A stretch of DNA of 64,000 bases from an uncultured Selenomonadales bacterium (GCA_946411735.1 CAMKFB010000002.1:572-64571); one strand, 5' to 3'; positions 1-60,656 are shown, counted from the first letter of the stretch. Made by a program: numbers and translations. The notes: generated by a model not told the origin, from the letters alone.

Positions 1-120
1 GAAATCGAGGGGCGCCGGTGCGTCATCGAGATCGAGGAGTTCTCGTCGAACGTCGAGGACGAATACTTGACGCTGCCGGCGACGTTGAAGGATGTCACGA
101 AACGAAGGAAGGAGGGCTGA
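1..120 (+). CDS. 3' end of an upstream gene (partial at window edge), function unknown
   Basis: Frame 1 is open from base 1 (..EIEGRRCVIEIEEFSSNVEDEYLTLPATLKDVTKRRKEG) to TGA 118-120. Codons are GC3-rich like the neighbours. Its last codons carry the GGAAGGAGGG SD (107-116) of the next gene. Confidence 0.4.
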   Translation, partial: EIEGRRCVIEIEEFSSNVEDEYLTLPATLKDVTKRRKEG

Positions 121-122
121 TC

Positions 123-941
123 GTGCGGCGGATATTTTTGATATTGACGGCGCTGGTGTGGTCGACGGTGATGTGCGCGACGGCGGGGGCGGCGCCGAGT
201 TGCATAATGCTGACCTTCACCGATGACACACGCTACGATCAGGTGAATACGGCGGCGGAGCTGTCGGACGACGTGATGATCAAGCTGATAAACAGCGGCA
301 AATTCAATTTGAGCGCGGACGAGCCGATCGAGGCGAACATTGCGGCGCATCTTTACGACGAGAAGGTTATCGGCTACGAGGCGATGGAGCGTGCGTTCGA
401 GAGCGACGATTTTGACGAGGTGTTTGAAGAAATTCTCGACGGTCGCAAGGCGCAATCGATCGCGACGGCGCAAGTAGGGCAGATTATTTCTCCGGAGCTC
501 ACGTCGAAAATCGGCAAGAAGAACAACGCCGAGTATTTGATTCAAGGGACGATCATCAATCTGGGCGTGGGCAATTGGATGAAAGAGGATTACTCGACGA
601 TGAGCCGCGCGATCAATATGGCGTCGACGTTCACGGGGATGTCGGGCTCGACGAGTGCGGTCGGCAGTCCGCTTGGCAACATGGCGACGTTCGATGTGAA
701 GAAGACGGGGATTGGCGTGCAGTGCGATGTTCGATTGATCAAGGCGTCGACGGGCGAAATTGTCTGGAGCAAGCGCGTGGTCGGCGTGGCGACGCAAAAG
801 ATGATCGATGTTGGCATTGCGAAATTCGGTCGTGAGAAATTGAACGATGCGTTGCGCGAGAAGGCGCTCGACGAGGCGTCGACAAAAATAGTGGCAGCGC
901 TGATTGACGATCTCGACGCGGGCAAATTGTTCGTGAGGTGA
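123..941 (+). CDS. Secreted CsgG/LpoB/FlgO-like envelope protein, paralog 1
   Basis: In-frame GTG 123 lies 7 nt after GGAGG. Signal peptide RRIFLILTALVWSTVMCATAGAAP. IMLTFTDDT..AELSDDVMIKLINSGKFNL..AEYLIQGTIINLG..VQCDVRLIKASTGEIVWSK matches the CsgG-family pattern by eye. The ORF-track start at 18 has no SD and would bury the signal peptide. Confidence 0.6.
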   Translation: MRRIFLILTALVWSTVMCATAGAAPSCIMLTFTDDTRYDQVNTAAELSDDVMIKLINSGKFNLSADEPIEANIAAHLYDEKVIGYEAMERAFESDDFDEVFEEILDGRKAQSIATAQVGQIISPELTSKIGKKNNAEYLIQGTIINLGVGNWMKEDYSTMSRAINMASTFTGMSGSTSAVGSPLGNMATFDVKKTGIGVQCDVRLIKASTGEIVWSKRVVGVATQKMIDVGIAKFGREKLNDALREKALDEASTKIVAALIDDLDAGKLFVR

Positions 942-945
942 TCTC

Positions 946-1566
946 ATGAGATGCGCGGCGGTAATATTGGCGGTGCTGGCGCTTATCGGAGCGATGATGA
1001 CGGTCGAGGCGGCTCCGCGCGGAGAGAAATACAAGGTGGCGGTGTGCAGCTTCGGCACGTTTCAGGAGATCGACATCGACAATTTGAAGGTCGAGGGCTC
1101 GGAGAAATCGCTATACTCGTTGGTGATTGACGGGCTGCTCGATACAAAAAAATTCTCGGCGTTCGAGCTCGATCGGGCGACGCTTGATGCGGCGGGTGTG
1201 AATTACACCGGCAAGATCACTCCGAGCGATGCAAAGAAGATCGGTGAGGTGCAGGGCGTGCGCTACATCATCTGCGGGAGCGTAAGGAATATCGCGCCGA
1301 TCGAAAGCGAATGCACGGTGCTATCGAACGGGCTGAAGGTTTTCTCGGTGCGGGCGCGCATTTCGTTGCAGATGATGGATGTGACGACCGGCAGGTATGT
1401 CAAGGGCGCGATCGGAGCGGGGACGTCGTCGAGTTCGCACGTGAGGGTCGGCAATGACATACACACGCTCAGCATCGGAACGACGAAGGTAGCGCAAACG
1501 AGCGTGGTGAACGCACTTTGGAAGGCGGCGCAAGACGCGACGAAAAGTCTTGCAGCGGAGTTGTAG
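946..1566 (+). CDS. Secreted CsgG/LpoB/FlgO-like envelope protein, paralog 2
   Basis: ATG follows GAGGTGA. Signal peptide MRCAAVILAVLALIGAMMTVEAAP. YKVAVCSFG..LVIDGLLDTKKFSAFE..VRYIICGSVRNI..ISLQMMDVTTGRYV has the same pattern as paralog 1. Confidence 0.6.
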   Translation: MRCAAVILAVLALIGAMMTVEAAPRGEKYKVAVCSFGTFQEIDIDNLKVEGSEKSLYSLVIDGLLDTKKFSAFELDRATLDAAGVNYTGKITPSDAKKIGEVQGVRYIICGSVRNIAPIESECTVLSNGLKVFSVRARISLQMMDVTTGRYVKGAIGAGTSSSSHVRVGNDIHTLSIGTTKVAQTSVVNALWKAAQDATKSLAAEL

Positions 1567-1595
1567 TCGGCGAAGAAATGATTGGAGGTGGTTGC

Positions 1596-2147
1596 ATGAG
1601 AAAAATATTATTGGCAACACTGTTGATGTTGTTGATGAGCGGTGCGGCATTGGCAATGGAAAAGCCGCGAGCAATCGTTATTACCCCTGAGGTTTCAGGA
1701 GGCGTCTGTGACTGCAGCGATTTGGGGCTGTTTCTTTCGACAACGGAATTTTTAACGGTTGCTCGAGATTTGACTGTGCAGGATGTGTTGGAGATTAACC
1801 AATTTGTTGTTTACGATTGCGATGTGGCATCGGAACAAAAATTGAGCTTCGATGAGTTTGTCAAGCAATACAACATTCAATACTTGATCAGGGTTGACGT
1901 AAGTTTTATAAAAGCCAACGTTTTTACCAAGAATGGTACTGACACTTGTGAACTGCAAGCAGGCGTAAATCTTTCTTTGATTGATATCGAAAGCCGCGAA
2001 ATTCTCTTCAGTACGAATACCGCGGGTAGCACCAAACGTAAGCATTCGGATGCGAGTTACGGAACAATAATTTTTGATGCAATTTCCGACGCGATTAAAA
2101 AGGCGACCATCGAGTTGTCAAGATACTGTGTGGCTAACTTTCCTTGA
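1596..2147 (+). CDS. Secreted CsgG/LpoB/FlgO-like envelope protein, paralog 3 (AT-rich, divergent)
   Basis: ATG 1596 follows GGAGGTGG. Signal peptide MRKILLATLLMLLMSGAALA. RAIVITPEV..IQYLIRVDVSFIK..VNLSLIDIESREILFS echoes paralogs 1 and 2. GC is markedly lower than in the flanks. Confidence 0.5.
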   Translation: MRKILLATLLMLLMSGAALAMEKPRAIVITPEVSGGVCDCSDLGLFLSTTEFLTVARDLTVQDVLEINQFVVYDCDVASEQKLSFDEFVKQYNIQYLIRVDVSFIKANVFTKNGTDTCELQAGVNLSLIDIESREILFSTNTAGSTKRKHSDASYGTIIFDAISDAIKKATIELSRYCVANFP

Positions 2148-2169
2148 TATCGAAAGGAGATGTTCTTCA

Positions 2170-2892
2170 ATGAAAAAGTTAATCGAACTCCTGCTGACGG
2201 CATTTCTGGCGCTTGTCGTCTTGGCGTCGAGCGAGGCAATCGCCGCTTATCAGAGGACGGCGGATAACACTGTACCGGCATATACCGATCGCAATCTCAG
2301 CAATCGGCAGGGCAACGAACGGGTTGATCGCGGCGACGTGGTGACGGTGTTCGAGGAGACGGACAATGCTTATTACGTCCGTTATCCGACTCCGCGCGGG
2401 ACGAAGGATCGTTGGGTGCCGAAGAATATTTTCAATGACAGCGGCTCTCAACCTTCAGGTGATGTGAGACAAAAATTGATGTACGCCGTATTTCGTAATG
2501 ATGGTGCACACATCACTTGTGATTTTGACGGATATCAGAATACGCGCGGCAGACATGAGGGAATTGATATGGTTCTTTCGCACAACGCTCCCGTCTATGC
2601 GGCAATCTCCGGCGTCGTGACGAGAGCCGGCGGCTCATTCAATACCGTTGCCATTTACGATCAGAACAATGATAAAACCGTCGTTTATCTGCACTTTAAT
2701 TCGGTAACGGTTCAACAGGGACAGTATGTTAATAAAGGTGATCACATCGGATATCAGGGAAGTAACGGAGCCTCCGCGTCTCATGTCCACATCGAAGTTC
2801 GTAACGGCAGACGTACGGCAGCCGCAAAAAGTGTAAACGATCCGACGTTGGACAATCCGAATCCTTATGATTATTGGAATAGAGTACTCTAA
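2170..2892 (+). CDS. Secreted SH3-domain / M23 (LytM-type) metallopeptidase
   Basis: ATG 2170 follows AAAGGAG. Signal peptide present. SH3-like segment DRGDVVTVFEETDNAYYVRYPTPRGTKDRWVPKNIF. M23 metal-ligand motifs HEGIDM and HVHIEV. Confidence 0.85.
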   Translation: MKKLIELLLTAFLALVVLASSEAIAAYQRTADNTVPAYTDRNLSNRQGNERVDRGDVVTVFEETDNAYYVRYPTPRGTKDRWVPKNIFNDSGSQPSGDVRQKLMYAVFRNDGAHITCDFDGYQNTRGRHEGIDMVLSHNAPVYAAISGVVTRAGGSFNTVAIYDQNNDKTVVYLHFNSVTVQQGQYVNKGDHIGYQGSNGASASHVHIEVRNGRRTAAAKSVNDPTLDNPNPYDYWNRVL

Positions 2893-2935
2893 GTAAACAT
2901 CCTAATAGAGTTTGTTTAGAGTGTTGATACAGACA

Positions 2936-2974
2936 GTCCTGCGGTGCTCAGCGCGCTCGCGGACATCGCAGGAC
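2936..2974 (+). other. Intra-operon stem-loop (possible processing or attenuation site)
   Basis: GTCCTGCG (2936-2943) pairs with CGCAGGAC (2967-2974). It lies in the only sizeable gap (116 nt) of the operon and is not followed by a proper U-run. Confidence 0.3.
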
Positions 2975-3008
2975 GCAATCTTTATCAATCGAGTGGAGGT
3001 AAAATACA

Positions 3009-4220
3009 ATGTTTAGTCGCATCAAAAAATTGCTCTGCGCGGCGCTTATCGGCGCATCGATGCTCGTCGGCAGCGGCGCGGTCGAGGCGGGCATCGTTAC
3101 CGATCGCTTTCCTCTGACGTGCTATACCGATCATCGCATCAACACTTTCGACAACATCAACGGACGGCAGGTCGGTTACATCGATGCCAACGTCGATTGG
3201 ATCACCATCACCGAGTATCGCGACGGTTGGGTCAAGGCGTCCTACAACGGCTTGCGCAATCCGCAATACAACGCGCGCTGGTTTCAAGTCACCGAAGTTT
3301 GCGCCGATCCGAATTACTCCAATCGCAGCGTGAATGTGCGCGGCAGTCAGACGGTCTACACGACGCGCTCGAGCAATACAAAGATGGGCAGCGTGTCGAA
3401 TAACGAGAGCGTGATCGTCATGGCGGAGGTCGGTAATCGGGCGCAGATTCTTTATCGGCTCGACAACGGCACGGGATATAAGATGGGCTGGGTTCCGAGT
3501 TCGGCGATCGCCTCTCAAAACGTGGGCGGCGGGCTCAAGGGTGATGTCAACGGCGACGGTCAGGTCAATCAAAACGATGTCGATCTGCTTTTGGCGTATT
3601 TGAGAGGTCAAACGCAATCGATTAATCGGAGCAACGCCGACTTCAACGGCGATGGCGACATCAGCATCTCCGACGCCAGCGCGATCCTTAAAAAAATACG
3701 CGAAAATCCTCAGCCTTCGCCTAATCAAGTACAAATAGATTTGAATGTGCCTTTAATCAAACAAACCAATTATCCCAAGGATATGATCGGCACCAGATCG
3801 ATCGCAGCTCGAGGCTGTACAATTACGTCACTGACGATGAAGTACAACTATCATAATCACACCAACATGACGCCGCCGGAAATGATGGAGAAACTCCGTC
3901 CCTTCCGTGGTGAAAACGGCAATGATGTGGATTGGGACAATGTCAAAGCCCGCCTCGGCTATACTACCGATCTCGTTTCCAACAGACCACGCCTCACCAA
4001 CGAGTGGATGGCAAAGATTTACAATCAACTCAAGCGCGGCAATCCTGTCGTGATCGGCGCCTACAACTATCATTGGGTCGTGGTCAAAGGATATACCGGC
4101 ACTTCGACAACAAATTTCAGAGCTGCCGACTTTCAAATCAACGATCCGTCAAATAACTTCACTAACCTTCAACAGTTCATCAATAAATACAGCGGTGGAC
4201 TGCGTGGAATAGTATATTGA
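3009..4220 (+). CDS. Secreted SH3 x2 / dockerin / papain-like cysteine peptidase (C39-like or CHAP-like)
   Basis: SD GGAGG 9 nt upstream. Signal peptide present. SH3-like segments (..DGWVKASY.., ..GYKMGWVPSSAI). Duplicated dockerin type I loops GDVNGDGQVNQNDVDLLLAYL and ADFNGDGDISISDASAIL. C-terminal domain has GCTITSL (Cys), YHWVVVKGY (His) and INDP. Confidence 0.8.
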   Translation: MFSRIKKLLCAALIGASMLVGSGAVEAGIVTDRFPLTCYTDHRINTFDNINGRQVGYIDANVDWITITEYRDGWVKASYNGLRNPQYNARWFQVTEVCADPNYSNRSVNVRGSQTVYTTRSSNTKMGSVSNNESVIVMAEVGNRAQILYRLDNGTGYKMGWVPSSAIASQNVGGGLKGDVNGDGQVNQNDVDLLLAYLRGQTQSINRSNADFNGDGDISISDASAILKKIRENPQPSPNQVQIDLNVPLIKQTNYPKDMIGTRSIAARGCTITSLTMKYNYHNHTNMTPPEMMEKLRPFRGENGNDVDWDNVKARLGYTTDLVSNRPRLTNEWMAKIYNQLKRGNPVVIGAYNYHWVVVKGYTGTSTTNFRAADFQINDPSNNFTNLQQFINKYSGGLRGIVY

Positions 4221-4233
4221 ATGAGGTGTAATC

Positions 4234-5145
4234 ATGAAATTCATCAGAAATAAGTCACTCGTGCTTGCCGCCGCGCTCGGAGCCGCCGCGCTCACCGTCA
4301 ATCCTGTCGCTCAATTGCCCGCCGCTTACGGCGCAACTTCCGTCAACGTCAACGTCAATCAGACCAATATCTCCAACGGGGTCGATTGGTTGCACGGCGC
4401 CGACTCCCTGATCTACGCCGAAGGGCGCGGGCGCTCCGGAGGTAAAGGCGTGTCCATGGCACGTCTCGCCGCCATCACCGACGCGCAACGTCATCTGCTC
4501 GGTACCATCAAGGGCGTGCAGATCGACTCCGAAACTCTCATGGAAGACCTGATAATCGAAAAGGACACCGTCCGTGCGAAGATCAACGGGCTCCTCCGCG
4601 GCGCTCAGATCGTCGAAGAATATCCCATCGATAACGATGAGTACGTCGTCAAGATGGCGGTTCCGCTTTACGGCGTCAACGGCAGTCTCGCCTCCGTCGT
4701 CGTGCCGGAGATCATGGACAGAGGCACGCCCGCGCCTTTCCCGACCGTGTCCTCGAGTGCAATCAGTCAAAGCGAAGCTCAATCGATCAGGAGCGCGCAT
4801 TACACCGGAGTGATCGTCAACGCCGACGGCATGGAGATGTCGCCGACCTTCTCGCCGGTCATTTACGACACTGACGGTCGAGCGATCTACGGCGTCGACA
4901 ATCTGCAATACGATGTGGTCATCGAGAAGGGCATGGTCGATTACGCCGACAATCTCAGCGGCGCGCGCGCGGACGGTCGAGCGGGCAATAATCCGTTGGT
5001 GATCAACGCGGTTGAGGTGCGCGGCGGTCAAAATTCCGTCAATAAAGTCAACGCGGTCGTCAGCGTCGAGGACGCCAATAAAATTCTGCTCGCCAACGAA
5101 GGCAATGATATGCTCGACGATACATCGGTCGTGTTCGTCAAGTAA
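4234..5145 (+). CDS. Secreted LPP20/FlgP-like protein with extra C-terminal domain
   Basis: SD GAGGTG. Signal peptide without a lipobox Cys. GKGVSMARLAAITDAQRHLLGTIKGVQIDSETLMEDL..GLLRGAQIVEEY..EYVVKMAVPLYG resembles the LPP20/FlgP family core by eye. Confidence 0.55.
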   Translation: MKFIRNKSLVLAAALGAAALTVNPVAQLPAAYGATSVNVNVNQTNISNGVDWLHGADSLIYAEGRGRSGGKGVSMARLAAITDAQRHLLGTIKGVQIDSETLMEDLIIEKDTVRAKINGLLRGAQIVEEYPIDNDEYVVKMAVPLYGVNGSLASVVVPEIMDRGTPAPFPTVSSSAISQSEAQSIRSAHYTGVIVNADGMEMSPTFSPVIYDTDGRAIYGVDNLQYDVVIEKGMVDYADNLSGARADGRAGNNPLVINAVEVRGGQNSVNKVNAVVSVEDANKILLANEGNDMLDDTSVVFVK

Positions 5146-5157
5146 GGAGGCGGGTTT

Positions 5158-8100
5158 ATGGCGACTATTAACAACAGCACATCGAATACAATTATATCCG
5201 GCACGTCGGACGATGATCTCATCTACAATGGCTCGTCAATGGTGTACAATGACCCGTCAATGGTGACGATCGATGCCGACGACGGCGACGACACCGTCCA
5301 CAACTACGGCGATTCGGTGACGATAGACACAGGTAATGGCAACGATTCCATCTTCAACACCAATAGCAATAATGTGCTGATCTCTTCCGGAGATGATAAT
5401 GATATAATCCACAACTATCGCGCTCCATTTACGACTATAGATGCGGGCGCGGGAAACGATTTCATCAGCAATAGCTATGGAAGTTCATTGTCGGCAATTG
5501 AGTTGGGAGATGGCAACGATACCGTCCACAACTATGGCGATTCGGTGACGATAGACACAGGTAATGGCAACGATTCCATCCACAACTCAAACGGCTCGAA
5601 CACGATGATAGACGCGCGAGCAGGTGACGACGAGATATATAATAGCGGCACACTGGTGACAATCTCTGCAGGAGACGGCAACGATTCCATCTTCAATGAC
5701 GATGGCTCGTCGGTAACAGTAGATTCTGGCGCAGGCAACGATTCCATCTACAATCGCTACAGCGATTCGGTGATGATCTTTGCGAGGATAGGCAACAATT
5801 ACGTCAATAATGACTATAGAAGTTCATTGTCGGCGATTAATGCGGGCGACGGCAACGATACCATTTATAATGGGGGATCATTAGTGACGATTAATACGGG
5901 CGATGGCGATGATTCCATCATCAACTTCTATGGCTCGAACGTGACAATCAATGCTGGCGACGGCGACGATTTCATCTACGACTACGGATCGTCTACGACA
6001 ATCAACGCGGGCGCTGATGACGATGTGATTAGTCTGGGCGCTGATGTGATTAGTCTTGATGGAAGCTCCGCACTGATCGTCTACAACGACGGTGACGGCA
6101 ATGATTCAATCTACAGTTACGACTCCAACACCGACACGCTCAATATCGCCGACGGGCTCTCGACCACTTCTGTTCAATCCGGCTCCGATATCATCATCAA
6201 CGTCGAAGGTTCGTCGAGCGGCTCGATCACTCTCGTTGACGTTGCCGACTCCGATACCACCGTCGCCCCCACGCCGACTGTCGAGCCCACGCCGACCGTT
6301 GAGTATCATGAAGGCTCCATCAACGCCGCACTCACACTCTCGGACGCGGACACTTCGACGGGCGTCTATGTGGTCGACGGCTCGGTGGAAATCGACAGCG
6401 GCACCGTGTACACGGCGACATTCGCGACTTCGACAGTCAGTACGGATATTGTCGTCGGCGACGTCGAAGAGTTGAACTATTTCGCGCGGAATGTCGGGAG
6501 GCAATCGATCGAAGTCTCCGGCGACAGTTGGAACGTCACCGCCACACAATTCGACGACAGCGTTGCTTGCTCAGGCGAAAACATCATAGTCAATGCCGGC
6601 GCCGGCAATGATGTGATCAATAACACCGGCGCATCCAATGAATTTCATACCGGCGACGGCGATGATTATGTTTACAATGCGGCTTATAGGGGACAAAGAC
6701 GCGGCTCATTGACTACCATCGAAACCGGCGAAGGCAATGATACGATTGACAGCGCCTGCTACGATGTGCTCATCAATGGCGGCAACGGCGGTGATTTGAT
6801 CTCCAATTACAGTTCAGCCGTTACGATCGATGCGGGCAGCGGCGATGATTACATTCTCAACTCCAAAGTGACGGGAGACGAAACGGTCAACGTACATTAC
6901 GGTCACAGATTTTATGGCGGTATCGGTTACAGAACCGGAGCCGAAGTCTCGATAGTCGGCGGCGACGGCAACGACACAATCGAGAATTACGGCGATGATG
7001 TGACGATTGATGCCTCGGGCGGCAACGATGTGATCACTCTCAACGAAGGCTCCGTGCGGATCGTTTATACGGACGGCGACGGTAACGATACCGTCTACGG
7101 TTTCGACTCCGACACAGTAACATTGGCGATCGCCGAAGGTCTCTCGACCACTTCCATTCAATCCGGCACCGATATGATCATCAACGTCGAAGGAGACTCC
7201 GTCGGTTCGCTCACTCTCAAGAATGTATACGCCGATATCGGAAGTATCAATGCTTACGTTGATCTCTCGATTGTGCGCAGCGGCAAAACCGGCTCATTCT
7301 TCGTCACGTCCTCCGACACCTTGAGCGACGGCAATGCCTATCACACTGCCCTCTTCCAAGCTGACGGCTCCGTCAATATCCCTGCCGACGCCGTCACTTA
7401 CAACAATCATTCTTACTATGTCTTCAACGATGTCAACACCGATTGGTACTCTGCGGAGGATTTTGCCGAATCGATCGGCGGTAACCTCGTCATCATCACT
7501 TCCGAAGGCGAACAAAATGTCGTCCAAGGCATGCTCGAATCTCTCGATGAAAGCGTTGCAAAAAATAATTATTGGATGGGAGCCACAATCGAGTCCACCG
7601 GCGAAATCGACGGCGTCAAACAATATAATTATCGCTGGGTCGACGGTACGCCCGTTGATGGAAATTCCTATACTCATTGGCAGCAGTACGGAAGACCGCA
7701 ACCCGATGGAGACAGCGGCTCCATTATGATGTACTATGCGGTTAATCCATATGCTACCAATTCACGGGGCGATTGGAATGATTTCTCGAGCAGTGGAGTA
7801 AACGGCGAATCTTTCTTCGGAATTGAAAACTTCGGAGCGATCGTCGAGTGGAATAATGAGCCGTCAACCGTTATCGGCACCGTCTCGAGCGATCACGTCT
7901 ACTCCGCCGTGTCGGATATCGGTAAGCAATCGATCACCGTTGCAAGCGATTGGTTCGTCACCGCCTCCGACCTCGACGACTCGATTCTGATCACCGGCGA
8001 CGCCTCTACCGTCGAACCCGGCAACGGCAATGATGTGATCTCCATCAACGGCGGCTCCGCGCGGATCGAGTATAAAGACGGCAACGGCGATGATACGATC

Positions 8101-9828
8101 TACGGCTTCTCCATCGATACCTCGACCTTGCAGTTTGCCGAGGGCTTATCAACCGATGCCGCGACGATCGGCAACGATATCGTGATCACCGCAACCGGCG
8201 ACTCCGTCGGCTCGATCACTCTCAAAGATGTCGTCGAACCTTCGACCGTCACCAATAAGATTGATCTCGTTTACATCGTCGACACCAGCGGCAGCATGGA
8301 TCAATACATCAACAAAATCAGAAACACCGCCGCGATTTTCGGAGACTACCTTACTGAACGGAACGTCGAGTTCAGGCTCGGGCTCGTCGAATACGATACG
8401 CGCGAATCCATCAGAAAATATGATTTCACCTCCGACATCAATACTTTCATCGGCAATGTGGATTACGTCCTCGGTAACAGCTTTGAGGACAATCAGGGCG
8501 CCGAATACGGTTTGAGTGCCATAACCGATCCCGATAACGGTGCGCTGTCTCTGAATTTCGATTCCGACGCCGATAAGTATTTTGTCGTCATCACCGACGA
8601 AGGCTATTGGGACAATAATTCAGACTCTGAGACTGTGATCGCTTCACTGCAGGCGGCGGACATTCAGCTCGACGTCATCGGCAGACTTCGTTCGAAGGCA
8701 CGATATATTCCCGGTTACGGATATCACACGGAAGATCTCGATTGTCAGCCGGAATGGGAGCCGATTGCCACGAGCACCGGCGGAGAATTTTATGATATTG
8801 ACGGTGATTATAATCGGGGGCTTCAAAAGATCGTTTCACCCACGACCGATGGTAAAACTGTCGTCATCAACCTCAGCCTTGCCGACAGCTCGACAAGCGG
8901 CTGCTTCGTGTTGGATGACGATTCGTCGAGGACCGCGGCATTCAAAACTGAAACTGTCGAGGGCGATACGATTGTCGGCTTTGTCAACGGCGATCACATC
9001 TACGAGGCTGCCGACGATTCGGCTCGACAGGAGATCAGGGTCACCTCCGATTGGAACGTCACTGCCACCGACAAAAAAGATGAAATAAAAATTTACGGTT
9101 CCGGCACGACAATCACCGGCGGCGGCGAAAAAGATTACATCACCATCAACAACGGAGTGTCGACCGTCACGCTCGCCGATCTTGATGTCGCCGAAGACGA
9201 TCTCACTTTCGTAAGCGGCATCACGCCCGGCGAGCTTGATTCCTCCGTCGAGAATGGGCAACTCGGTTTTTCTTCGACCGTCTTGTCTTTCGATATGTCC
9301 GATCAAAGCGCACTCACCTCCGACATCAAAAACTACACCGTCCACAACGGCGATAACGAACACACCATCGCCGATCTGCTTTACGGCACCGACACTCATC
9401 GCGTTTCGCTCTCGTTCATCAATTACGGCGCCAATCCCCGCCGAACTTATGTCACTAGCCTTGCCGACGTCGACGAGGGCTTTTTCGAGCTCACCGACGG
9501 CGACGGCAGCCGCTCGGTCTGGGGCGGCAATGACGGCGACGATACTCTCACCGGCACCGACGGCTATGACGAGTTCTTCTATCTTAAAACCAACGGCAAT
9601 GATGTGATCGAAAACGCCGGCGACAACGATCTGATCAATCTGCTAAACATCAGTCTCGAGGAGATTGATCTTGAAAGTTTCCCGTATGCGATCGGCGACG
9701 ACGCGACCACGATCAAGTTTAATGACGGCGGCTCGATCCGCGTCAACGGCACGTCGGAGGTCGGATTCAAGGTCGCCAATGTCGATTGCACGTTCTGCGT
9801 CAAGGATCGTCAGTGGGCGATAAAGTGA
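5158..9828 (+). CDS. Giant (1556 aa) RTX-like repeat / C-type lectin / vWA surface protein, no N-terminal signal peptide
   Basis: SD AAGGAGG 7 nt upstream. About 14 copies of an 18-20-aa x-G-x-G-N-D-x-I-x-N beta-roll-like repeat (about nt 5260-6060). A DGDGNDxxYxxDxxxDxLxxAxGLSTxxxxxGxDxxIxxxGxSxGSxTL module occurs 3 times. C-type lectin-like segment at about 7399-7855 (YYVF..WYSAEDFAESIGGNLVII..NYWMGA..YRWVDGT..WND..IVEW). vWA domain with MIDAS DTSGS at about 8260-8835. C-terminal RTX-type GGNDGDDTLTGTDGYDEFFY. Confidence 0.85.
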   Translation: MATINNSTSNTIISGTSDDDLIYNGSSMVYNDPSMVTIDADDGDDTVHNYGDSVTIDTGNGNDSIFNTNSNNVLISSGDDNDIIHNYRAPFTTIDAGAGNDFISNSYGSSLSAIELGDGNDTVHNYGDSVTIDTGNGNDSIHNSNGSNTMIDARAGDDEIYNSGTLVTISAGDGNDSIFNDDGSSVTVDSGAGNDSIYNRYSDSVMIFARIGNNYVNNDYRSSLSAINAGDGNDTIYNGGSLVTINTGDGDDSIINFYGSNVTINAGDGDDFIYDYGSSTTINAGADDDVISLGADVISLDGSSALIVYNDGDGNDSIYSYDSNTDTLNIADGLSTTSVQSGSDIIINVEGSSSGSITLVDVADSDTTVAPTPTVEPTPTVEYHEGSINAALTLSDADTSTGVYVVDGSVEIDSGTVYTATFATSTVSTDIVVGDVEELNYFARNVGRQSIEVSGDSWNVTATQFDDSVACSGENIIVNAGAGNDVINNTGASNEFHTGDGDDYVYNAAYRGQRRGSLTTIETGEGNDTIDSACYDVLINGGNGGDLISNYSSAVTIDAGSGDDYILNSKVTGDETVNVHYGHRFYGGIGYRTGAEVSIVGGDGNDTIENYGDDVTIDASGGNDVITLNEGSVRIVYTDGDGNDTVYGFDSDTVTLAIAEGLSTTSIQSGTDMIINVEGDSVGSLTLKNVYADIGSINAYVDLSIVRSGKTGSFFVTSSDTLSDGNAYHTALFQADGSVNIPADAVTYNNHSYYVFNDVNTDWYSAEDFAESIGGNLVIITSEGEQNVVQGMLESLDESVAKNNYWMGATIESTGEIDGVKQYNYRWVDGTPVDGNSYTHWQQYGRPQPDGDSGSIMMYYAVNPYATNSRGDWNDFSSSGVNGESFFGIENFGAIVEWNNEPSTVIGTVSSDHVYSAVSDIGKQSITVASDWFVTASDLDDSILITGDASTVEPGNGNDVISINGGSARIEYKDGNGDDTIYGFSIDTSTLQFAEGLSTDAATIGNDIVITATGDSVGSITLKDVVEPSTVTNKIDLVYIVDTSGSMDQYINKIRNTAAIFGDYLTERNVEFRLGLVEYDTRESIRKYDFTSDINTFIGNVDYVLGNSFEDNQGAEYGLSAITDPDNGALSLNFDSDADKYFVVITDEGYWDNNSDSETVIASLQAADIQLDVIGRLRSKARYIPGYGYHTEDLDCQPEWEPIATSTGGEFYDIDGDYNRGLQKIVSPTTDGKTVVINLSLADSSTSGCFVLDDDSSRTAAFKTETVEGDTIVGFVNGDHIYEAADDSARQEIRVTSDWNVTATDKKDEIKIYGSGTTITGGGEKDYITINNGVSTVTLADLDVAEDDLTFVSGITPGELDSSVENGQLGFSSTVLSFDMSDQSALTSDIKNYTVHNGDNEHTIADLLYGTDTHRVSLSFINYGANPRRTYVTSLADVDEGFFELTDGDGSRSVWGGNDGDDTLTGTDGYDEFFYLKTNGNDVIENAGDNDLINLLNISLEEIDLESFPYAIGDDATTIKFNDGGSIRVNGTSEVGFKVANVDCTFCVKDRQWAIK
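5293..5580 (+). repeat. 60-bp near-identical direct repeat inside the giant gene (5293-5352 and 5521-5580)
   Basis: accgtccacaacta[c/t]ggcgattcggtgacgatagacacaggtaatggcaacgattccatc occurs twice with 1 mismatch. The period is 228 bp, equal to four 19-aa repeat units. Confidence 0.9.
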
Positions 9829-9835
9829 GGTGCGG

Positions 9836-11986
9836 ATGATGTATAAAAAACGTTGGCTCAAAAAAAATCTGTCGGCGCTGATCGCCTGCGCCGGTCTGAT
9901 CACGTTTAATGTGCCGGGCTTTGCGGCAAGCGGCGCGTCCGATGTCGTGCATGGCGGCGGCGACGAGGAAAGTTCGGAGGATGTGACGGACAATACCGTA
10001 ATTGTTGAGTCCGGCTATGATGTTAAAGAAGTGATCGGCGGCGTATCGGCGGAAGGCGTTGTCAAGAACAATACGGTCGAGATCAACGGCGGATCGCTCG
10101 AAGGCGCGGTCGGCGGCGTGTCGGTCGTCAACAGCGAAGCGGGCAATGTCGCCGGCAATGTTGAAGGCAACAAAGTCATAATGCGCGGCGGCTCGGCGAA
10201 GTACATCTCGGGCGGTGAAGTCGGATATCTTTATCCGCGCGACGGCGACGAGACTCCCGACGTCACACAATCGAACTTTCAGGAGGGCGGCGAAGTCTCC
10301 TCTAATAAAGTCACGATCGAAGGCGGCAACGTCACCGGCGCGGTTGTCGGCGGCTCGGCTTTAACCGGCTCCGCGCGGAATAATTCCGTTGCGATCACCG
10401 GCGGCACGATCAGAGGACAAGTGATCGGCGGCATGGTTCGTTATTCGATCGAGCGATCGGAAGCGACCGGCAACACGATCACGATCGGCTTGGAAGACGA
10501 GGACAAAAGTTCGTCGATCGATTTGAGCAATGCCGAGCTGATCGGCGGCTGGCTGGGCGACGGCTCGGGCGGCTATTCTTACACCTCGGGCAACACGCTC
10601 AAGGTCACGAACGTCCATGATCTTGAGGTTCGGAGCATCAACGGTTTTGACAAGCTTGACTTCACGTTGCCGACGACGGGAGATGTGATGCTCAAAATCA
10701 CCGGCGGCGAAACGACGCTCGACGGCACGACGCTCAAGGTCGGCTCAAGCGGCGATAACGCTCGAGTGGAAACCGGATTGCAAGTCAATTTGATTCAGAA
10801 TGACAGCGGGCTCAGGTTGTCGAACATAAAATTGGAGGAACCTTTTATGGAAGGACACTCCATCGAACGCGAATTGGAGCTCATTACCGACGACGGTGAA
10901 ACGATCGCCGTCTTTAACAAAGATAACAAAGACGAGTTGGCGACGAGTGCGGCGCTCGACAGCGACGGTTTTTTGAGGACGAACGGTTTTCATGCGCGGG
11001 TCGGTGATATCATTAAGCTCAACGACAAAATAAACGAACTTACCAATAATGGCGACATCCTCGGTCATACCGCGCAGAATATAATTCAAAACGTCATCAA
11101 GGATTGGAAACCGCCCGAAGAAGAGTTCCGCGAGATTCAAGATGAAGATGTCGAAGTCAGCAATGAGATGAAGGTTTTTTCGGGCGGCAACGGCAGTGCG
11201 CTCCGAGTAAAGCTCAGCGACGGCGGGCACATTCGCAATAATGTTGTCGGGCTTGGGATCGGCGGCGCCAAAACTCTCGTCAACAAAGGAAACGGCAATC
11301 ATTTCAGCTTTGCGCCGCTCATCGATCACGGCAAGGGCAAGTTTGACACTTACACGGAGAACGGCAATCACGGCAAAGGCGATACACAGTTCAGCGGCGG
11401 AGGATTTATCGCGCGACGGATGCTCACCAACGGTTTTTATTACGAGGGCAGCCTGCATTACGGGCGCGCAAGGTCGTCCTTCGAGTCTAATGACTTCGAT
11501 CGCGATTCCAACGACAGCACGTATGATTCTTACGATATGTCGGCACCGATCATTGCGGGGCATATCAACATCGGCAAACTGTTTGCGATCAATCGCGAGA
11601 ACACCGTCCACGTCTACGGTCAATATTTGCACTCGCACCAGGGCTCGATGTCAACGCATCTTTTGAACGGCGATCATTACGAATTTGACAGCGTCAATGA
11701 CGGGACGTTTGTCGCGGGCATTCGCTTCATCAATCAGCCCAACAAGGTGAACAAGTTTTATTCGGGCTTCGCTTATCAGTACGATCACAGCAGCGGCTCG
11801 TCGGCGGTGCATAAGGGTCAACGGACGCATGAGGTCGATTCAAACGGCAGCAGCGGCATGTTCGAGCTCGGTTGGGAGATCAAACCGCACGCGGCAATCC
11901 CTTGGGTGGTCGATCTCGGAGCGGTCGGTTGGATCGGTCAGCAGAAGGGCTTGACGTTCCACGCGAAGGTTAAAAAATCTTTCTGA
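9836..11986 (+). CDS. Type Va autotransporter (beta-helical passenger + C-terminal beta-barrel)
   Basis: ATG 9836/9839 follows GTGAGGTG. Signal peptide ..[23 protein letters not shown]. Passenger has iterated N-x-V-x-I-x-GG-x-V-x-G-x-V-GG repeats. The C-terminal ~270 aa have alternating hydrophobics and end ..[12 protein letters not shown] (terminal Phe). Confidence 0.8.
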
Positions 11987-12013
11987 GCTCCGCGCGGAGC
12001 CGACAAGATTTTT

Positions 12014-12039
12014 GGAGCCGAGGAGGCTCCGTTTTTTTT
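12014..12039 (+). terminator. Rho-independent terminator after the autotransporter gene
   Basis: GGAGCC (12014-12019), loop GAGGA, GGCTCC (12025-12030), then G + T8 (12032-12039). Confidence 0.75.
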
Positions 12040-12042
12040 CGC

Positions 12043-12071
12043 TTTACTTTGCACGGGCGAGAATGTATACT
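12043..12071 (+). promoter_or_regulatory. Candidate sigma-70-type promoter of ribBA
   Basis: TTTACT (12043-12048), 17 nt, TATACT (12066-12071), with TG just upstream. The -35 is weak. Confidence 0.35.
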
Positions 12072-12085
12072 TCAATTGGGGTGAT

Positions 12086-13282
12086 ATGATGAATGATTTT
12101 GCAACCGTCGAACAGGCAATCGATGACATCAAGCACGGCAAGATGGTGGTTGTGGTCGACGATGAGGATCGCGAGAACGAGGGCGATCTCATTTGCGCCG
12201 CCGAGACCGTCACGCCCGCCGACATAAATTTCATGGCCACTTACGCCAAAGGTTTAATCTGCACGCCCATCGACGGCAAGCGCCTCGACGAGCTCAACAT
12301 TAATCAGATGGTCGTCAACAACACCGACAATCACGAGACCGCCTTTACCGTCTCGATTGACGCCTTCGACACGGCGACCGGCATCTCCGCCTACGAACGT
12401 TGCCGCACCATTAAACTGCTGATCGATCCGACCGCTAAGGCGTCGAGCTTCCGTCGACCGGGGCATGTTTTTCCGCTCCGCTCGGTCGAGGGCGGCGTCC
12501 TTCGTCGAGCCGGTCACACCGAGACCACCACCGATCTGGCGCGGCTTGCCGGATTTTATCCCGCCGGACTTTGTTGCGAGATCATGGACGATGACGGGCA
12601 TATGATGCGTACCGAGCGCTTGAAAGAATTTGCCGCGCATCACAGACTCAATATCATCACCGTCCAAGCGCTGATCGAGTATCGCAAGCGGACGGAGAAA
12701 TTCGTCCGACTGATCGCCGACGTCAACTTCCCGAGCCGCTTCGGTTGCTTCCGACTCAAGGCTTATGAGAGCACGCTCGACGGCAAGTGCCATCTGGCGA
12801 TCGTCAAGGGCGATGTCGCCGGCAAATCGAATGTGCTCGTGCGGGTGCATTCGGAGTGCTTGACGGGAGATGCGCTCGGTTCTCTTCGATGCGATTGCGG
12901 AGATCAATTGCATCAGGCGCTGGAGCGTATCGAGCACGAGGGCGAAGGCGTAGTGCTTTACATGCGTCAAGAGGGGCGCGGGATCGGGCTGGCGAATAAG
13001 ATGAAGGCGTACGCACTGCAGGATCAGGGTAAAGACACCGTCGAGGCGAATATCTTATTGGGCTTCGCGCCGGATTTGAGAGATTACGGGATTGGCGCAC
13101 AGATATTAGCCGATCTCGGGCTGTCGACGATCCGATTGATGACAAACAATCCGGCGAAACGCGCGGGGCTGGAAGGGCATGGGCTCAAGATAGTCGAGCG
13201 GGTGCCTATTGTAGCCGAGCCGACCTGTTTCGATAAGCATTATCTCGACGTCAAAAAAGAAAAAATGGGTCACGAGTTATAA
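12086..13282 (+). CDS. ribBA: Bifunctional 3,4-dihydroxy-2-butanone-4-phosphate synthase / GTP cyclohydrolase II
   Basis: [16 protein letters not shown] (DHBP synthase), then [36 protein letters not shown] (GCH II). Confidence 0.95.
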
Positions 13283-13295
13283 GGAGGAAAAATTT

Positions 13296-13670
13296 ATGAG
13301 CAGAATTTTCGTCAGCGAGGACAAACAGTCAATGGTGATGCTCCTCAAGGGCACCGTCGAGACCATTAACAACGGCAGCAAGATGATCCCCATGGGCGCC
13401 AATACCGTCGATGCCGCCGTCGAAAAGCACGTCCCCACCATTAAGGTCGAGGGCAAAACCGTCAGCGTCAAGGTCGGCAGCGTCGAGCATCCCATGACGG
13501 AGTCTCATCTCATCGAGTGGATTTATCTCCAGACGAAAAAAGGCGGGCAGTACCGCCATCTGTCACCCGTCGACAAGCCCGAGGCGACGTTCATTGTTGC
13601 CGACGATGACGAGCCGATCGCCGTCTACGAGCATTGCAACCTGCACGGACTTTGGAAGGCTGATATCTGA
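13296..13670 (+). CDS. Superoxide reductase (desulfoferrodoxin-family, 1Fe type lacking the N-terminal CxxC centre)
   Basis: [43 protein letters not shown] is the SOR centre II signature. No Cys in the N-terminal 40 aa. Confidence 0.85.
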
Positions 13671-13683
13671 TCGGAGGCGCGTT

Positions 13684-14148
13684 ATGCCCAATATCATCGA
13701 AGGCAATATCACCGGTCGCGGGCTCAAGTTCGCGATCGTCGTGTCGAGATTCAACGAGTTCATCACGTCGAAACTGCTCGGCGGCGCGCTCGATATGCTC
13801 CGCCGTCACGAAACCAACGAGGATGATATCGACGTCATTTGGGTGCCGGGCGCATTCGAAATTCCGTTGCTCGCAAAAAAATTGGCATCGAGTAAAAAAT
13901 ACGACGCCGTCATTTGCTTGGGAGCGGTGATCCGAGGCTCGACCACGCATTACGATTATGTCTGCAACGAAGTATCGAAGGGGATCGCGACGGTCGGGCT
14001 GTCGACGGGCGTGCCGACCATCTTCGGCGTCGTCACCACCGAGAACATCGAACAGGCAATCGAGCGCGCGGGAACCAAGGCAGGCAATAAGGGAGCCGAC
14101 GCCGCCGTCAGCGCAATGGAGATGGCGAACCTCCTCAAATCGATCTGA
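13684..14148 (+). CDS. ribH: 6,7-dimethyl-8-ribityllumazine synthase
   Basis: ATG 13684. [53 protein letters not shown]. The ORF-track start 13594 overlaps the SOR gene. Confidence 0.95.
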
Positions 14149-16994: not shown

Positions 16995-17684
16995 TCAAGC
17001 GGCGACGGCGGCGCTGCTGTTTTGCACGACCAAAATTTTGTCGGCGATAAAATTGGCGACGCCCGGGTGGTGCGTGACGAGCACGATCGACAAGCCAAAG
17101 CGGCGTCGGAGGTTGAGCAGTTCCTTGACGACATCGGCTTGAGTGACGGTGTCGAGCGCGGAAGTAGGCTCGTCGGCGAGTAAAAGTTTCGGCTCGAGAA
17201 TGATTGCGGCCAGGATGCCGGCGCGTTGAGCCATGCCGCCGCTCAAGCGGAAAGGATATTCGTCGAGCACGCGCGAAGGGAGATTGATTTTGCTCATCAA
17301 CGCCTCCGCGCGGAGAGTGAATTGAGCGCGCGACCAATCGGTGTGTGCTCGGACAGCTTCGTAAATCTGATCGCCGATGGTTCGGATCGGGCAAAACGAC
17401 GCGACGGGATTTTGAAAGATCGTTGCGATCGAACTGCCGGCGAGTTGACGGCGTTGGCGGTCGTCGAGCGCGGTGATGTCGCGTCCGTCGAAAGTGATGG
17501 AGCCGCCGCTGATTCGACCGTTGTGCCCGAGCAGTCCGTTGATCGCCTTGAGCACGGTCGACTTGCCCGAGCCCGATTCGCCCACAATCGCAAGAATTTC
17601 GCCGCGCTCAAGATCGAAGCTGATATTCTCGATGACGGTTTGAACGCCGTAACTGACGGATAAATTTTTGATCGATAAAATCAT
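16995..17684 (-). CDS. ABC transporter ATP-binding protein (NikD/OppD/DppD-like)
   Basis: Walker A GESGSGKST, signature LSGGMAQR, Walker B LLLADEPTSALD. ATG 17684 follows AGAGAGG. Confidence 0.9.
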   Translation of the reverse strand: MILSIKNLSVSYGVQTVIENISFDLERGEILAIVGESGSGKSTVLKAINGLLGHNGRISGGSITFDGRDITALDDRQRRQLAGSSIATIFQNPVASFCPIRTIGDQIYEAVRAHTDWSRAQFTLRAEALMSKINLPSRVLDEYPFRLSGGMAQRAGILAAIILEPKLLLADEPTSALDTVTQADVVKELLNLRRRFGLSIVLVTHHPGVANFIADKILVVQNSSAAVAA

Positions 17685-60215: not shown

Positions 60216-60656
60216 ATGACTAATAAGGCTGAACAGTTTAAAGCATATCTCGACGAGAAGGAGATCAAAGTTTTCGAGATCGAGGAGCTCGAGAACGACG
60301 AGCAGGAGACCGTCGCTTTCCGCTCGCGCATGACCATCGAAGGTCAGAGCTTGCCGCTGGTCGTCATCGTCGACAAGTCTATCTTCACCATGATTCGCGT
60401 CCAGCTCCAAGCGCAGGCGCAGACACCCGAGAACGCCAACGCCATCGCCGCTGCCGCCAACGCCGAGAACGCCCGCTTCAAACCCTTCAAAGTTTACACC
60501 AACGCCGGCGGCGATTTGCTCCTCGACGTCTGCTTGAGTTTCATGAACGACCTCAACGGCGACGAAATTTATGTGCTCTTCGACAGCATCATCGCCTACC
60601 TCAACGGTAAGGACGGCGGCTATCGTCGCTTGATGAAGGCGGTTTGGGGCGAATGA
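60216..60656 (+). CDS. Small cytoplasmic acidic protein, YbjN / secretion-chaperone-like (tentative)
   Basis: SD GGAGG. No signal peptide. ..FKAYLDEKEIKVFEIEE..VAFRSRM..LPLVVIVDKSIFTMIRV..LLLDVCL.. fits the alpha/beta YbjN-like pattern by eye. ATGA-coupled to tpsB. Confidence 0.35.
   Translation: MTNKAEQFKAYLDEKEIKVFEIEELENDEQETVAFRSRMTIEGQSLPLVVIVDKSIFTMIRVQLQAQAQTPENANAIAAAANAENARFKPFKVYTNAGGDLLLDVCLSFMNDLNGDEIYVLFDSIIAYLNGKDGGYRRLMKAVWGE

Follow-up and report, generated by a model that had tools for sequence, protein, structure and literature searches.

A conserved Negativicutes gene cluster with CsgG-, FlgP- and FlgT-like products that probably form a non-flagellar, ring-like complex under the outer membrane

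We analysed a stretch of 64,000 nucleotides from an uncultured Selenomonadales bacterium (GCA_946411735.1, CAMKFB010000002.1:572-64571; hereafter, the window), whose first 11,986 nucleotides carry on the + strand eight complete co-directional genes, g1 to g8, and the last 39 codons of a ninth (Table 1). The first-pass annotation of this DNA had seen here an operon of nine genes on one strand that combines CsgG-like and FlgP-like proteins with wall hydrolases, a giant protein and an autotransporter; the co-directional layout stands, whereas the count comes to eight complete genes and a fragment. The gaps that it gave, 2 to 29 nt and a single one of 116 nt, agree exactly with the coordinates (in order, 2, 4, 29, 22, 116, 13, 12 and 10 nt). 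A GGAGG- or GAGG-type motif lies 5 to 12 nt 5' of every start, in line with a Shine-Dalgarno sequence for each gene, and the starts of g1 and g8 are confirmed by products identical to database proteins (P0150 for g1; P0121 for the 715-aa product of g8). We assigned the fragment at the left edge to a family of exported proteins, U4: its frame-1 end, …CVIEIEEFSSNVEDEYLTLPATLKDVTKRRKEG*, agrees with the C-terminal consensus of that family, and U4 stands immediately 5' of the g1 ortholog in three syntenic relatives (L007, L008 and L012), from which the genes left of the window, U1 to U4, were inferred. Directly 3' of g8 lies a terminator-like hairpin with a T8 tract (12013..12031), which is suggestive only, as the total of terminator-like sites in the region is not above that of shuffled sequences. 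The earlier picture of one tightly packed unit that runs on past the left edge is borne out.

Table 1. Position and assignment of the features of the window
Feature	Position	Strand	Basis or remark
Tail of upstream gene (U4 3' end; family of ~260-aa exported proteins)	1..120	+	Frame-1 translation, ends …LTLPATLKDVTKRRKEG*
g1, exported CsgG-family paralog, 272 aa	123..941	+	GTG start; Pfam CsgG
g2, exported CsgG-family paralog, 206 aa	946..1566	+	Pfam CsgG
g3, small exported g2 paralog, 183 aa	1596..2147	+	Profile-profile comparison to g2 family
g4, exported, one SH3b-like module (~70 aa) and M23 metallopeptidase	2170..2892	+	Peptidase_M23
g5, exported, two SH3b-like modules, type I dockerin and C39-like cysteine peptidase	3009..4220	+	Pfam
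g6, exported, FlgP-like SHS2 domain and Tp0624-D2-like domain	4234..5145	+	Family profile against PDB
g7, signal-less repeat protein, RTX-like/lectin/VWA, 1556 aa	5158..9828	+	Pfam, NCBIfam, motif counts
g8, type Va autotransporter, 715 aa	9839..11986	+	AlphaFold model and Foldseek
Terminator-like hairpin and T-run, before ribBA	12013..12040	+	7-bp stem with 5 GC pairs, then TTTTTTTT
Promoter-like site before ribBA	12043..12071		
ribBA	start 12086		
Desulfoferrodoxin-like gene	13296..13670		Nested between ribBA and ribH
ispG/gcpE	47514..48722		
Second signal-less RTX protein, 545 aa	48729..50366	+	HemolysinCabind 2.4e-11; canonical GGxGxD repeats
proS	50844..52565		
TpsB-type two-partner-secretion transporter	60644..62296	+	POTRA_2 8.6e-21, ShlB 2.9e-19, Omp85

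Conservation was assessed at 78 loci, fetched by alignment to the g6 family from contigs of one genome per species, with open reading frames (ORFs) called mechanically and families assigned by two rounds of hidden Markov models built from the window and two annotated relatives. An expanded form of the cluster is present in 26 Negativicutes loci, from Selenomonadaceae, from Phascolarctobacterium/Acidaminococcaceae and from one metagenome-assembled genome (MAG) labelled 'Veillonellaceae'; many loci are fragmented MAG contigs cut at their ends, so that counts of presence are lower bounds and counts of absence approximate. It comprises about 12 genes, usually in the order U1-U2-U3-U4-g1-g2, g3 where present, a variable slot, g6 and then optional adhesin genes, and is sometimes permuted. 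The core is kept as a unit in loci from 20+ genomes of Selenomonadaceae, Phascolarctobacterium and other Negativicutes, a conservation that the first-pass annotation had proposed as a check on its operon. Positions 1..12040 of the window are the 3' two-thirds of the Negativicutes cluster, with U1 to U4 lying left of the window. In L007, the closest relative, whose g6 has 76% identity with that of the window, synteny covers all genes from U2 through g8 and continues with ribBA; the cluster lies between ribE and ribBA in L008 and between a helix-turn-helix gene and a ClpX-like gene in L012. Synteny with L007 and L008 and identity to them would place the source organism among rumen-type Selenomonadaceae. 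The flanking genes are unrelated housekeeping genes (rib, TerD, ClpX-like and similar) that differ between genomes, and no flagellar or type I secretion family ranks among the 25 most frequent ones in the 121 proteins that flank 22 clusters. Because the flanks share no recurrent family of either kind, the cluster behaves as an autonomous unit. The sole recurrent flank family is CAP/SCP (6 of the 121 proteins), whose members are probably conserved genes just after g6 in Phascolarctobacterium (L029 10958..12457; L030 10872..12383; others).

Smaller forms of the cluster exist as well. The minimal module of oral Selenomonas and Centipeda periodontii (L034, L035, L038 and L040) consists of U1 in two or three tandem copies, U2 and g6, without U3, U4, g1, g2 and the variable slot. 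Outside the Negativicutes, in Deltaproteobacteria, Nitrospirota, WOR-3 and Scalinduaceae, the module comprises g6, a TPR(+SLH) protein, U1, a GNA1162-like protein and U2, and loci of Sericytochromatia hold g6 alone. The TPR protein encoded between the g6-like and U1-like genes of three Deltaproteobacteria (L065, L075 and L078) carries an SLH domain (4.6e-7 in L075), a possible sign that in other phyla the module is connected with peptidoglycan or a secondary polymer.

Three of the window genes had been taken for CsgG-like paralogs by eye, and the profile comparisons uphold this. Against Pfam CsgG (PF03783; gathering cut-off 20.8), g1 scores 24.8 bits (1.5e-5) and g2 21.6 bits (1.5e-4), with weaker matches to LpoB and FlgT_M; g3 has no Pfam match and is identified as a paralog of g2 by profile-profile comparison with the g2 family (99.3%, E 4e-20), with orthologs confined to the window, L007 and L008. 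The same type of comparison links g2 to the U2 family (100%, E 3e-44) and g1 to the U2/CsgG family (98.3%). U2 gives the best CsgG match of the family members, its family aligning with E. coli CsgG in the PDB at 1.3e-8 over a range that covers the first transmembrane hairpin region (TM1). Structures were predicted for g1 and g8, both as monomers. The g1 AlphaFold model (predicted local distance difference test, pLDDT, 76) has two insertions, one helical and one of 40 aa that is poorly ordered, and its Foldseek matches, at E 1e-6 to 1e-4, are CsgG, FlgT (3w1e), the Vibrio LPHT-ring chain 8z5n_0, GNA1162 (4hrv), CT253 and PelC. The 40-aa insertion, whose pLDDT is below 50, coincides with TM1 of CsgG; for TM2 there is no room, as no more than ~12 residues stand in its place. 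Of the curli partners, neither CsgE/CsgF nor CsgA/CsgB is represented by its Pfam families in the window or in the relatives' upstream genes, which, together with the flanks described above, agrees with the earlier statement that the cluster neighbours neither curli nor flagellar genes. The leaders of g1 to g3 are of the signal-peptidase-I type. Members of the g1 family share an invariant cysteine a few residues past the predicted signal cleavage site and, in addition, an invariant motif C-x4-F-x-DDTR-x-D (…CIMLTFTDDTRYD…); neither of the two is a lipobox.

Searched against the PDB, the profile of the g6 family finds solved FlgP proteins (C. jejuni 9hmf_C, 3.3e-14; Vibrio 8z5n_2, 4e-6; also 9yds), and homologs of g6 are often named 'LPP20 family lipoprotein', many with a precomputed PF02169 match; the earlier LPP20/FlgP-like call is thereby substantiated, even though neither g6 itself nor its C-terminal domain alone has a Pfam match. 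The FlgP-like SHS2 domain (residues ~56-143) includes the beta-hairpin insert that in FlgP has been tied to ring oligomerisation (PMC12222027). In the sequence alignment of profile positions 56-143 with FlgP residues 66-158, the hairpin region is ungapped and the sole insertion lies before the helix. The C-terminal domain (~188-300) resembles domain D2 of T. pallidum Tp0624 (5jir_B residues 141-259; 2.6e-5), a fold without known analogues or function according to the authors of that structure (PMC5104382). The two-domain family is large, with 585 clusters at 50% identity (E ≤ 1e-30). U1, a protein of 350-390 aa encoded left of the window in the relatives, is built from an N-domain that matches solved FlgP at 2.5e-10, with the hairpin insert ungapped, and g6 at 97.9%, a CsgG/TolB-like middle domain that matches U2 (93.8%), and a C-terminal domain. 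By these comparisons its domain order (SHS2, TolB/CsgG-like, C-domain) appears to be that of FlgT; its FlgT_N score (8e-4) is below the cut-off, and no FlgT match was found in the PDB by sequence. The two remaining core proteins, U3 and U4, are exported mutual paralogs of ~265 aa (hhalign 96%) present in 21 to 22 of the 26 clusters (L008 4563..6184; L012 3824..5403).

A shorter, stand-alone g6 paralog (270-290 aa) occurs in many Selenomonadaceae in another conserved context, after a gene for a ~156-aa protein (L044, L047, L050-L053, L056, L058 and L066). In Quinella (L047), ORFs that we take by eye to resemble lpxA, fabZ and lpxC lie within a few kb of it, and in L051, L056 and L058 it adjoins RTX-type giant genes. 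A functional pairing of g6-like and RTX genes was considered on account of this adjacency and dropped as weak, since these genomes are rich in RTX giants (L058 has three within 20 kb) and the loci are orthologs of one another.

The slot between g2 or g3 and g6 holds one to four genes, in the window g4 and g5. The M23 domain of g4 (PF01551, 5.8e-19) keeps its zinc motifs, HEGID (RHEGIDM) and HVH (SHVHIE), and g5 combines Dockerin_1 (2e-12) with Peptidase_C39_2 (9.2e-11). Both contain a module of ~70 aa, in one copy in g4 and in two in g5. The annotation of the two as SH3-tethered wall hydrolases holds for the M23 and the dockerin plus C39-like domains; the SH3 part is weak, with a below-threshold SH3_3 match on the g5 N-terminus (E 7.7e-4) and no Pfam SH3 match for the N-terminal module of g4. 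This SH3b-like module recurs in 30 of the 37 variable-slot proteins, in 1-6 copies each. RicinB lectin and dockerin domains are found in 13/37 proteins each, M23 and C39-like (C39_2) peptidases in five each, C10 in three, CHAP in two, and NlpC/P60 and C-type lectin domains in one each.

All cluster proteins except g7 carry an N-terminal signal sequence with a cleavable-type leader, and none has an internal membrane helix or is an ATPase. As there is no internal hydrophobic helix, the cluster supplies no inner-membrane or energy-coupling part, and the earlier description of the module as envelope-spanning finds no footing in these proteins. Nor do the leaders point to lipidation: of the 19-50 Negativicutes sequences checked for each core family (U1, U2, g1, g2 and g6), at most one has a lipobox, the figure being 0-1 of 25-30 for each of U2, g1 and g2, and neither of the two g3 sequences checked has one. 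In the g6 family the count is 0/50 within the Negativicutes versus 4/31 outside them, and several relatives from WOR-3, Deltaproteobacteria and Nitrospirota do have a lipobox. The absent lipoboxes fit the reported absence of LolA and LolB from Negativicutes (PMC5007114).

Taken together, we consider with moderate confidence that the cluster encodes a ring or disc complex close to the outer membrane that depends on Sec, carries no lipid anchors and is not flagellar, to which g7 and g8 would be lineage-specific additions with export routes of their own. This reading is grounded in the solved relatives FlgP, FlgT, CsgG and PelC, which form homo-oligomeric rings within the outer membrane or at its inner face, and in the FlgP hairpin insert kept in g6 and U1; CsgG, FlgT, PelC and GNA1162, to which the g1 model is matched, are all outer-membrane-associated ring formers. 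After export by Sec, the core products would assemble of their own accord, with no energy source, as concentric ring- or disc-shaped oligomers. These would lie in the outer periplasm, adjoining the outer membrane or inside it, and would resemble the flagellar H-ring/basal disk (FlgT/FlgP/FlgO) and the CsgG and PelC rings outside any flagellar context. The variable-slot proteins, here g4 and g5, may be its clients or working parts, bringing the shared module together with peptidoglycan peptidases, ricin-type lectins and dockerins. g7 would leave the cell via a type I system encoded elsewhere, and g8 by Sec followed by self-insertion with the beta-barrel assembly machinery/translocation and assembly module (BAM/TAM).

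Several observations weigh against this reading, among them the fragmentation of many loci mentioned above. Ring formation is argued from homology, and the template modelling scores (TM-scores) of the g1 model are low, 0.3-0.43, including those to CsgG and FlgT. In sequence searches of the PDB, neither the g1 nor the g2 family profile gets as far as CsgG: the g1 search returned chance-level matches only, and g2 reached LpoB alone, weakly. For U3 and U4, neither Pfam nor profile searches of the PDB, with chance-level matches only, gave a relative, so that a third of the core is left unexplained, and the core proteins have no lipid anchors for attachment to the outer membrane. With regard to the route assigned to g7, no ATP-binding cassette (ABC), membrane fusion protein (MFP) or TolC gene was found among 20 further window ORFs, which included most of the largest but not every ORF, in agreement with the first-pass annotation, which saw no such gene in the window. 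Furthermore, g7 lies only 12 and 10 nt from g6 and g8, and these short gaps, together with signal-less RTX or VWA genes in 5/26 clusters, leave room for a functional tie of the cluster to adhesins in some lineages.

We also weighed whether the cluster might be a CsgG-type (type VIII-like) secretion system, with U2 as the outer-membrane channel, g1 to g3 as possible accessory rings and the FlgP/FlgT-like proteins as a periplasmic cage or adaptor, exporting the Sec-delivered variable-slot proteins. The kinship with the CsgG curli channel, HfaB and PelC is tangible: g1 and g2 pass the Pfam CsgG cut-off, the alignment of U2 to E. coli CsgG spans the TM1 hairpin, the g1 model matches CsgG and PelC, and the cluster is Sec-dependent without an ATPase. 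The slot domains (RicinB and dockerin foremost) are typical of extracellular proteins, the common ~70-aa module could serve as a recognition tag, and CsgG/HfaB relatives export or anchor surface polymers; A. baumannii mutants in a CsgG cluster lose poly-N-acetylglucosamine and Cup pili (bioRxiv 10.1101/2021.05.19.444899). Unlike the CsgG system, however, the cluster has no lipobox and no csgA/B/E/F-like genes, and where that system has one channel gene it holds several paralogs. A second transmembrane hairpin is missing from the g1 model, whose first insertion is of low confidence, so that it offers no convincing pair of membrane hairpins; moreover, the CsgG pore takes unfolded chains, and we recognised no curli-like substrate or CsgE/F analogue. 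Finally, SH3b-like modules with M23, CHAP or NlpC/P60 domains would suit periplasmic enzymes that work on the wall of the cell itself just as well. We thus regard secretion of this kind as possible but unlikely.

Unlikely as well, in our view, is a new Sec-dependent outer-membrane assembly or secretion machine of diderm Firmicutes, in which non-lipidated rings of the CsgG/FlgT/FlgP type together with U3 and U4 would display or release the variable-slot proteins and dock adhesins. If true, such a machine would be an answer to how proteins are anchored in or exported across the outer membrane in a clade without the Lol pathway.

The peptidases of the slot suggest a further possibility, a periplasmic complex for peptidoglycan remodelling or cell shape, in which the CsgG/LpoB-like and SHS2 proteins would scaffold or regulate M23, C39-like, CHAP and NlpC/P60 hydrolases. 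Precedents can be drawn from LpoB, which regulates a penicillin-binding protein, and from the Csd/Pgp proteins that shape Helicobacter and Campylobacter; g1, g2 and U2 have weak LpoB matches, the M23 catalytic motifs are kept in g4, peptidoglycan peptidases recur in the slot, and the shared module is SH3b-like. Yet lectins and dockerins, rather than hydrolases, are the commonest occupants of the slot, some clusters have no hydrolase, and the FlgP-type hairpin insert and the many ring-type paralogs would go unexplained, which makes this account improbable.

The first-pass annotation itself had proposed that the CsgG- and FlgP-like proteins, with the wall hydrolases, make up a machine dedicated to exporting or anchoring g7. 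Its description of the giant protein was largely accurate. g7 has no hydrophobic N-terminus, and no hydrophobic segment at all, consistent with the lack of a signal peptide; it has a Lectin_C match (1.8e-6) and a weak VWA match (VWA_2 0.037), with an intact DxSxS metal-ion-dependent adhesion site motif (DTSGS). Residues 1445-1506 give a local match to the NCBIfam RTX_toxin model, 19 degenerate GxGxDx[LIVF] motifs are present, and Pfam HemolysinCabind does not match; nor does any Pfam family match the C-terminus, GGNDGDDTLTGTDGYDEF. In favour of a dedicated exporter, g6, g7 and g8 are separated by the short gaps given above and share one terminator, and g7-like signal-less RTX or VWA genes occur in five expanded clusters (window, L007, L008, L015 and L062), and the scanned window ORFs include no type I secretion gene. 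However, only 3/26 clusters have a giant RTX-type gene in the position that follows g6 (window; L007, 1336 aa; L008, 1157 aa), the 963-aa canonical RTX protein of L015 lying at another cluster position and the L062 gene encoding a 269-aa signal-less VWA protein between two g8-type autotransporters (L062 8587..16096). The other 21 expanded clusters and all minimal modules have no g7-like gene, and the core is otherwise complete without one; the claimed coupling of cluster and giant protein is not supported. In L062, the 'Veillonellaceae' MAG, the VWA and lectin-like modules of g7 appear as separate small genes, the latter a 162-aa exported protein that by eye resembles a C-type lectin, likewise encoded between the two autotransporters.

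A protein without a signal would in addition have to be moved out of the cytoplasm, and the cluster has no inner-membrane or energy-coupling component to do so. The C-terminal RTX-type block of g7 is like that of known type I substrates, and, given the abundance of RTX giants in related genomes, adjacency carries little weight. Far from the cluster, between ispG/gcpE and proS, the window encodes a second signal-less RTX protein with canonical repeats, and its presence implies genes for type I secretion at some place in the genome; directly beside it, among ispG, proS, thiD, a LysR regulator and topA, there are none. Two ORFs of ~600 aa at 27-31 kb were considered as ABC exporters and rejected, one being an SSF symporter and the other without a match. 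Given that g7 has a fitting build, that a second RTX protein is present and that RTX giants are frequent in relatives, the best account of it is that of a type I substrate whose gene entered the variable 3' end of the cluster in one small lineage. It seems to be like type I-secreted RTX adhesins such as LapA and SiiE in being signal-less, in its Gly/Asp repeats, in its VWA and lectin domains and in the C-terminal block, and unlike them in that no ABC/MFP/TolC genes lie beside it and its repeats are degenerate. Mechanistic dependence of g7 on the cluster is not supported, the outcome for a new exporter of a giant adhesin is mostly negative, and we give such a machine little credence.

The autotransporter call for g8 is supported by its predicted structure. 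The model (pLDDT 78.5; 718-aa query starting at 9830) comprises a hydrophobic leader, repetitive beta-strands over residues 40-400 (pLDDT mostly above 85) that would form a beta-helix passenger, a stretch with pLDDT below 50 (399-443), where an alpha-helical linker would be sought, and a predicted 12-strand barrel (446-717), the protein closing with the aromatic end …KVKKSF. Its top Foldseek matches are the beta-domains of EspP, BrkA, EstA, AIDA-I and NalP (E from 8e-12 for EspP to 7e-10), with a TM-score on the target of 0.6-0.82 (BrkA 0.82), except for full-length EstA (0.35). Beta-helix and barrel are as in type Va autotransporters; unlike typical ones, g8 has no Pfam autotransporter match of its own and a PDB-sequence profile search at chance level, so that the assignment comes from structure and from remote homologs that carry PF03797 (P0137, P0138, P0144 and P0148) or autotransporter names. 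Members of the g8 family occur in 8/26 clusters, and g8 would in principle be self-sufficient for export. Co-transcription of g7 and g8 with the cluster is likely in this lineage, perhaps as co-regulated surface functions. Apart from these proteins, a TpsB-type two-partner-secretion transporter is encoded near the right end of the window (Table 1).

Its surroundings also bear on how the cluster came to lie here. In this lineage it sits between ribE (Lum_binding, seen in L008) and ribBA-ribH, splitting a riboflavin operon (window 12086..14148; L008 1867..2505 and 17457..19525), and the desulfoferrodoxin-like gene is nested within the latter pair. A gathering-threshold Rfam scan of the window gave no match, neither an FMN riboswitch nor any other RNA, and G+C is 0.505-0.544 over the cluster region versus mostly 0.55-0.60 in the remaining window. 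The split operon, the nested gene, the missing riboswitch and the slightly lower G+C suggest that the cluster was acquired as one block.

Among described entities, the nearest are the Vibrio flgO/P/T H-ring genes and the CsgG/GNA1162-like lipoprotein operon. In Vibrio, flgO, flgP and flgT are clustered, as are the genes for SHS2, FlgT-like and small ring-type proteins here. The cluster shares with the H-ring, and with the Campylobacter basal disk, the FlgP-like domains of g6 and U1 including the hairpin insert, and with the H-ring also, it appears, the FlgT domain order of U1, as well as a g1 model that superposes on FlgT (3w1e, 8z5n_0). The Vibrio H-ring consists of FlgT (C26) and FlgP/FlgO (C58) rings under the outer membrane, and CsgG, FlgP and FlgO are lipid-anchored (bioRxiv 10.64898/2025.12.02.691832). 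Unlike these structures, the cluster is non-lipidated and adds the Tp0624-D2-like domain of g6, four to five CsgG-family paralogs, two unknown proteins (U3 and U4) and a variable enzyme slot. That it is a flagellar accessory, an H-ring- or basal-disk-like elaboration of the Selenomonad motor, is highly improbable: among solved proteins, g6 and the U1 N-domain indeed stand closest to flagellar FlgP, U1 appears to show the FlgT order and many Selenomonadaceae are motile, but the flanks hold differing housekeeping genes with no recurrent flagellar family, the cluster is common in Phascolarctobacterium, a genus described as non-motile, and the C-terminal domain of g6 is absent from FlgP.

With the second entity, the three-gene CsgG/GNA1162-like (DUF799)/lipoprotein cluster that is widespread among Gram-negatives (A. 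baumannii D1G37_12595-12605; N. meningitidis GNA1162), ours has in common a CsgG-family gene next to exported TolB-like proteins, the GNA1162-like and TPR(+SLH) proteins of the distant modules in Deltaproteobacteria and Nitrospirota, and the match of the g1 model to 4hrv. It differs in that no window protein matches PF05643, in the FlgP/FlgT-like proteins, U3/U4 and slot added in Negativicutes, and in its lack of lipidation; the proteobacterial operon is itself functionally unresolved (bioRxiv 10.1101/2021.05.19.444899). The parts thus come from known superfamilies, yet each named system has defining features that are missing here: lipidation, curli genes, linkage to flagellar genes and, among the window proteins, a GNA1162-like match. 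Literature searches (CsgG/LPP20 in Negativicutes; non-flagellar FlgO/P/T homologs) likewise found no description of the cluster, in agreement with the first-pass annotation, which knew of no described system of such composition.

The Negativicutes are the main model for the retention or loss of the outer membrane in Firmicutes, and experiments have so far covered little of their envelope machinery (PMC5007114). In this clade, relatives of the lipid-anchored ring formers that proteobacteria use in the flagellar motor and the curli pore are found without lipid anchors or flagellar genes, next to a fast-changing slot for enzymes that bind wall and glycan. Should they indeed form a ring complex, the FlgP/FlgT fold would gain a wider, non-flagellar use, the complex would be a candidate ancestor or offshoot of the flagellar disk structures, and it would provide a handle on how proteins are positioned at the outer membrane of a diderm that lacks the Lol pathway.

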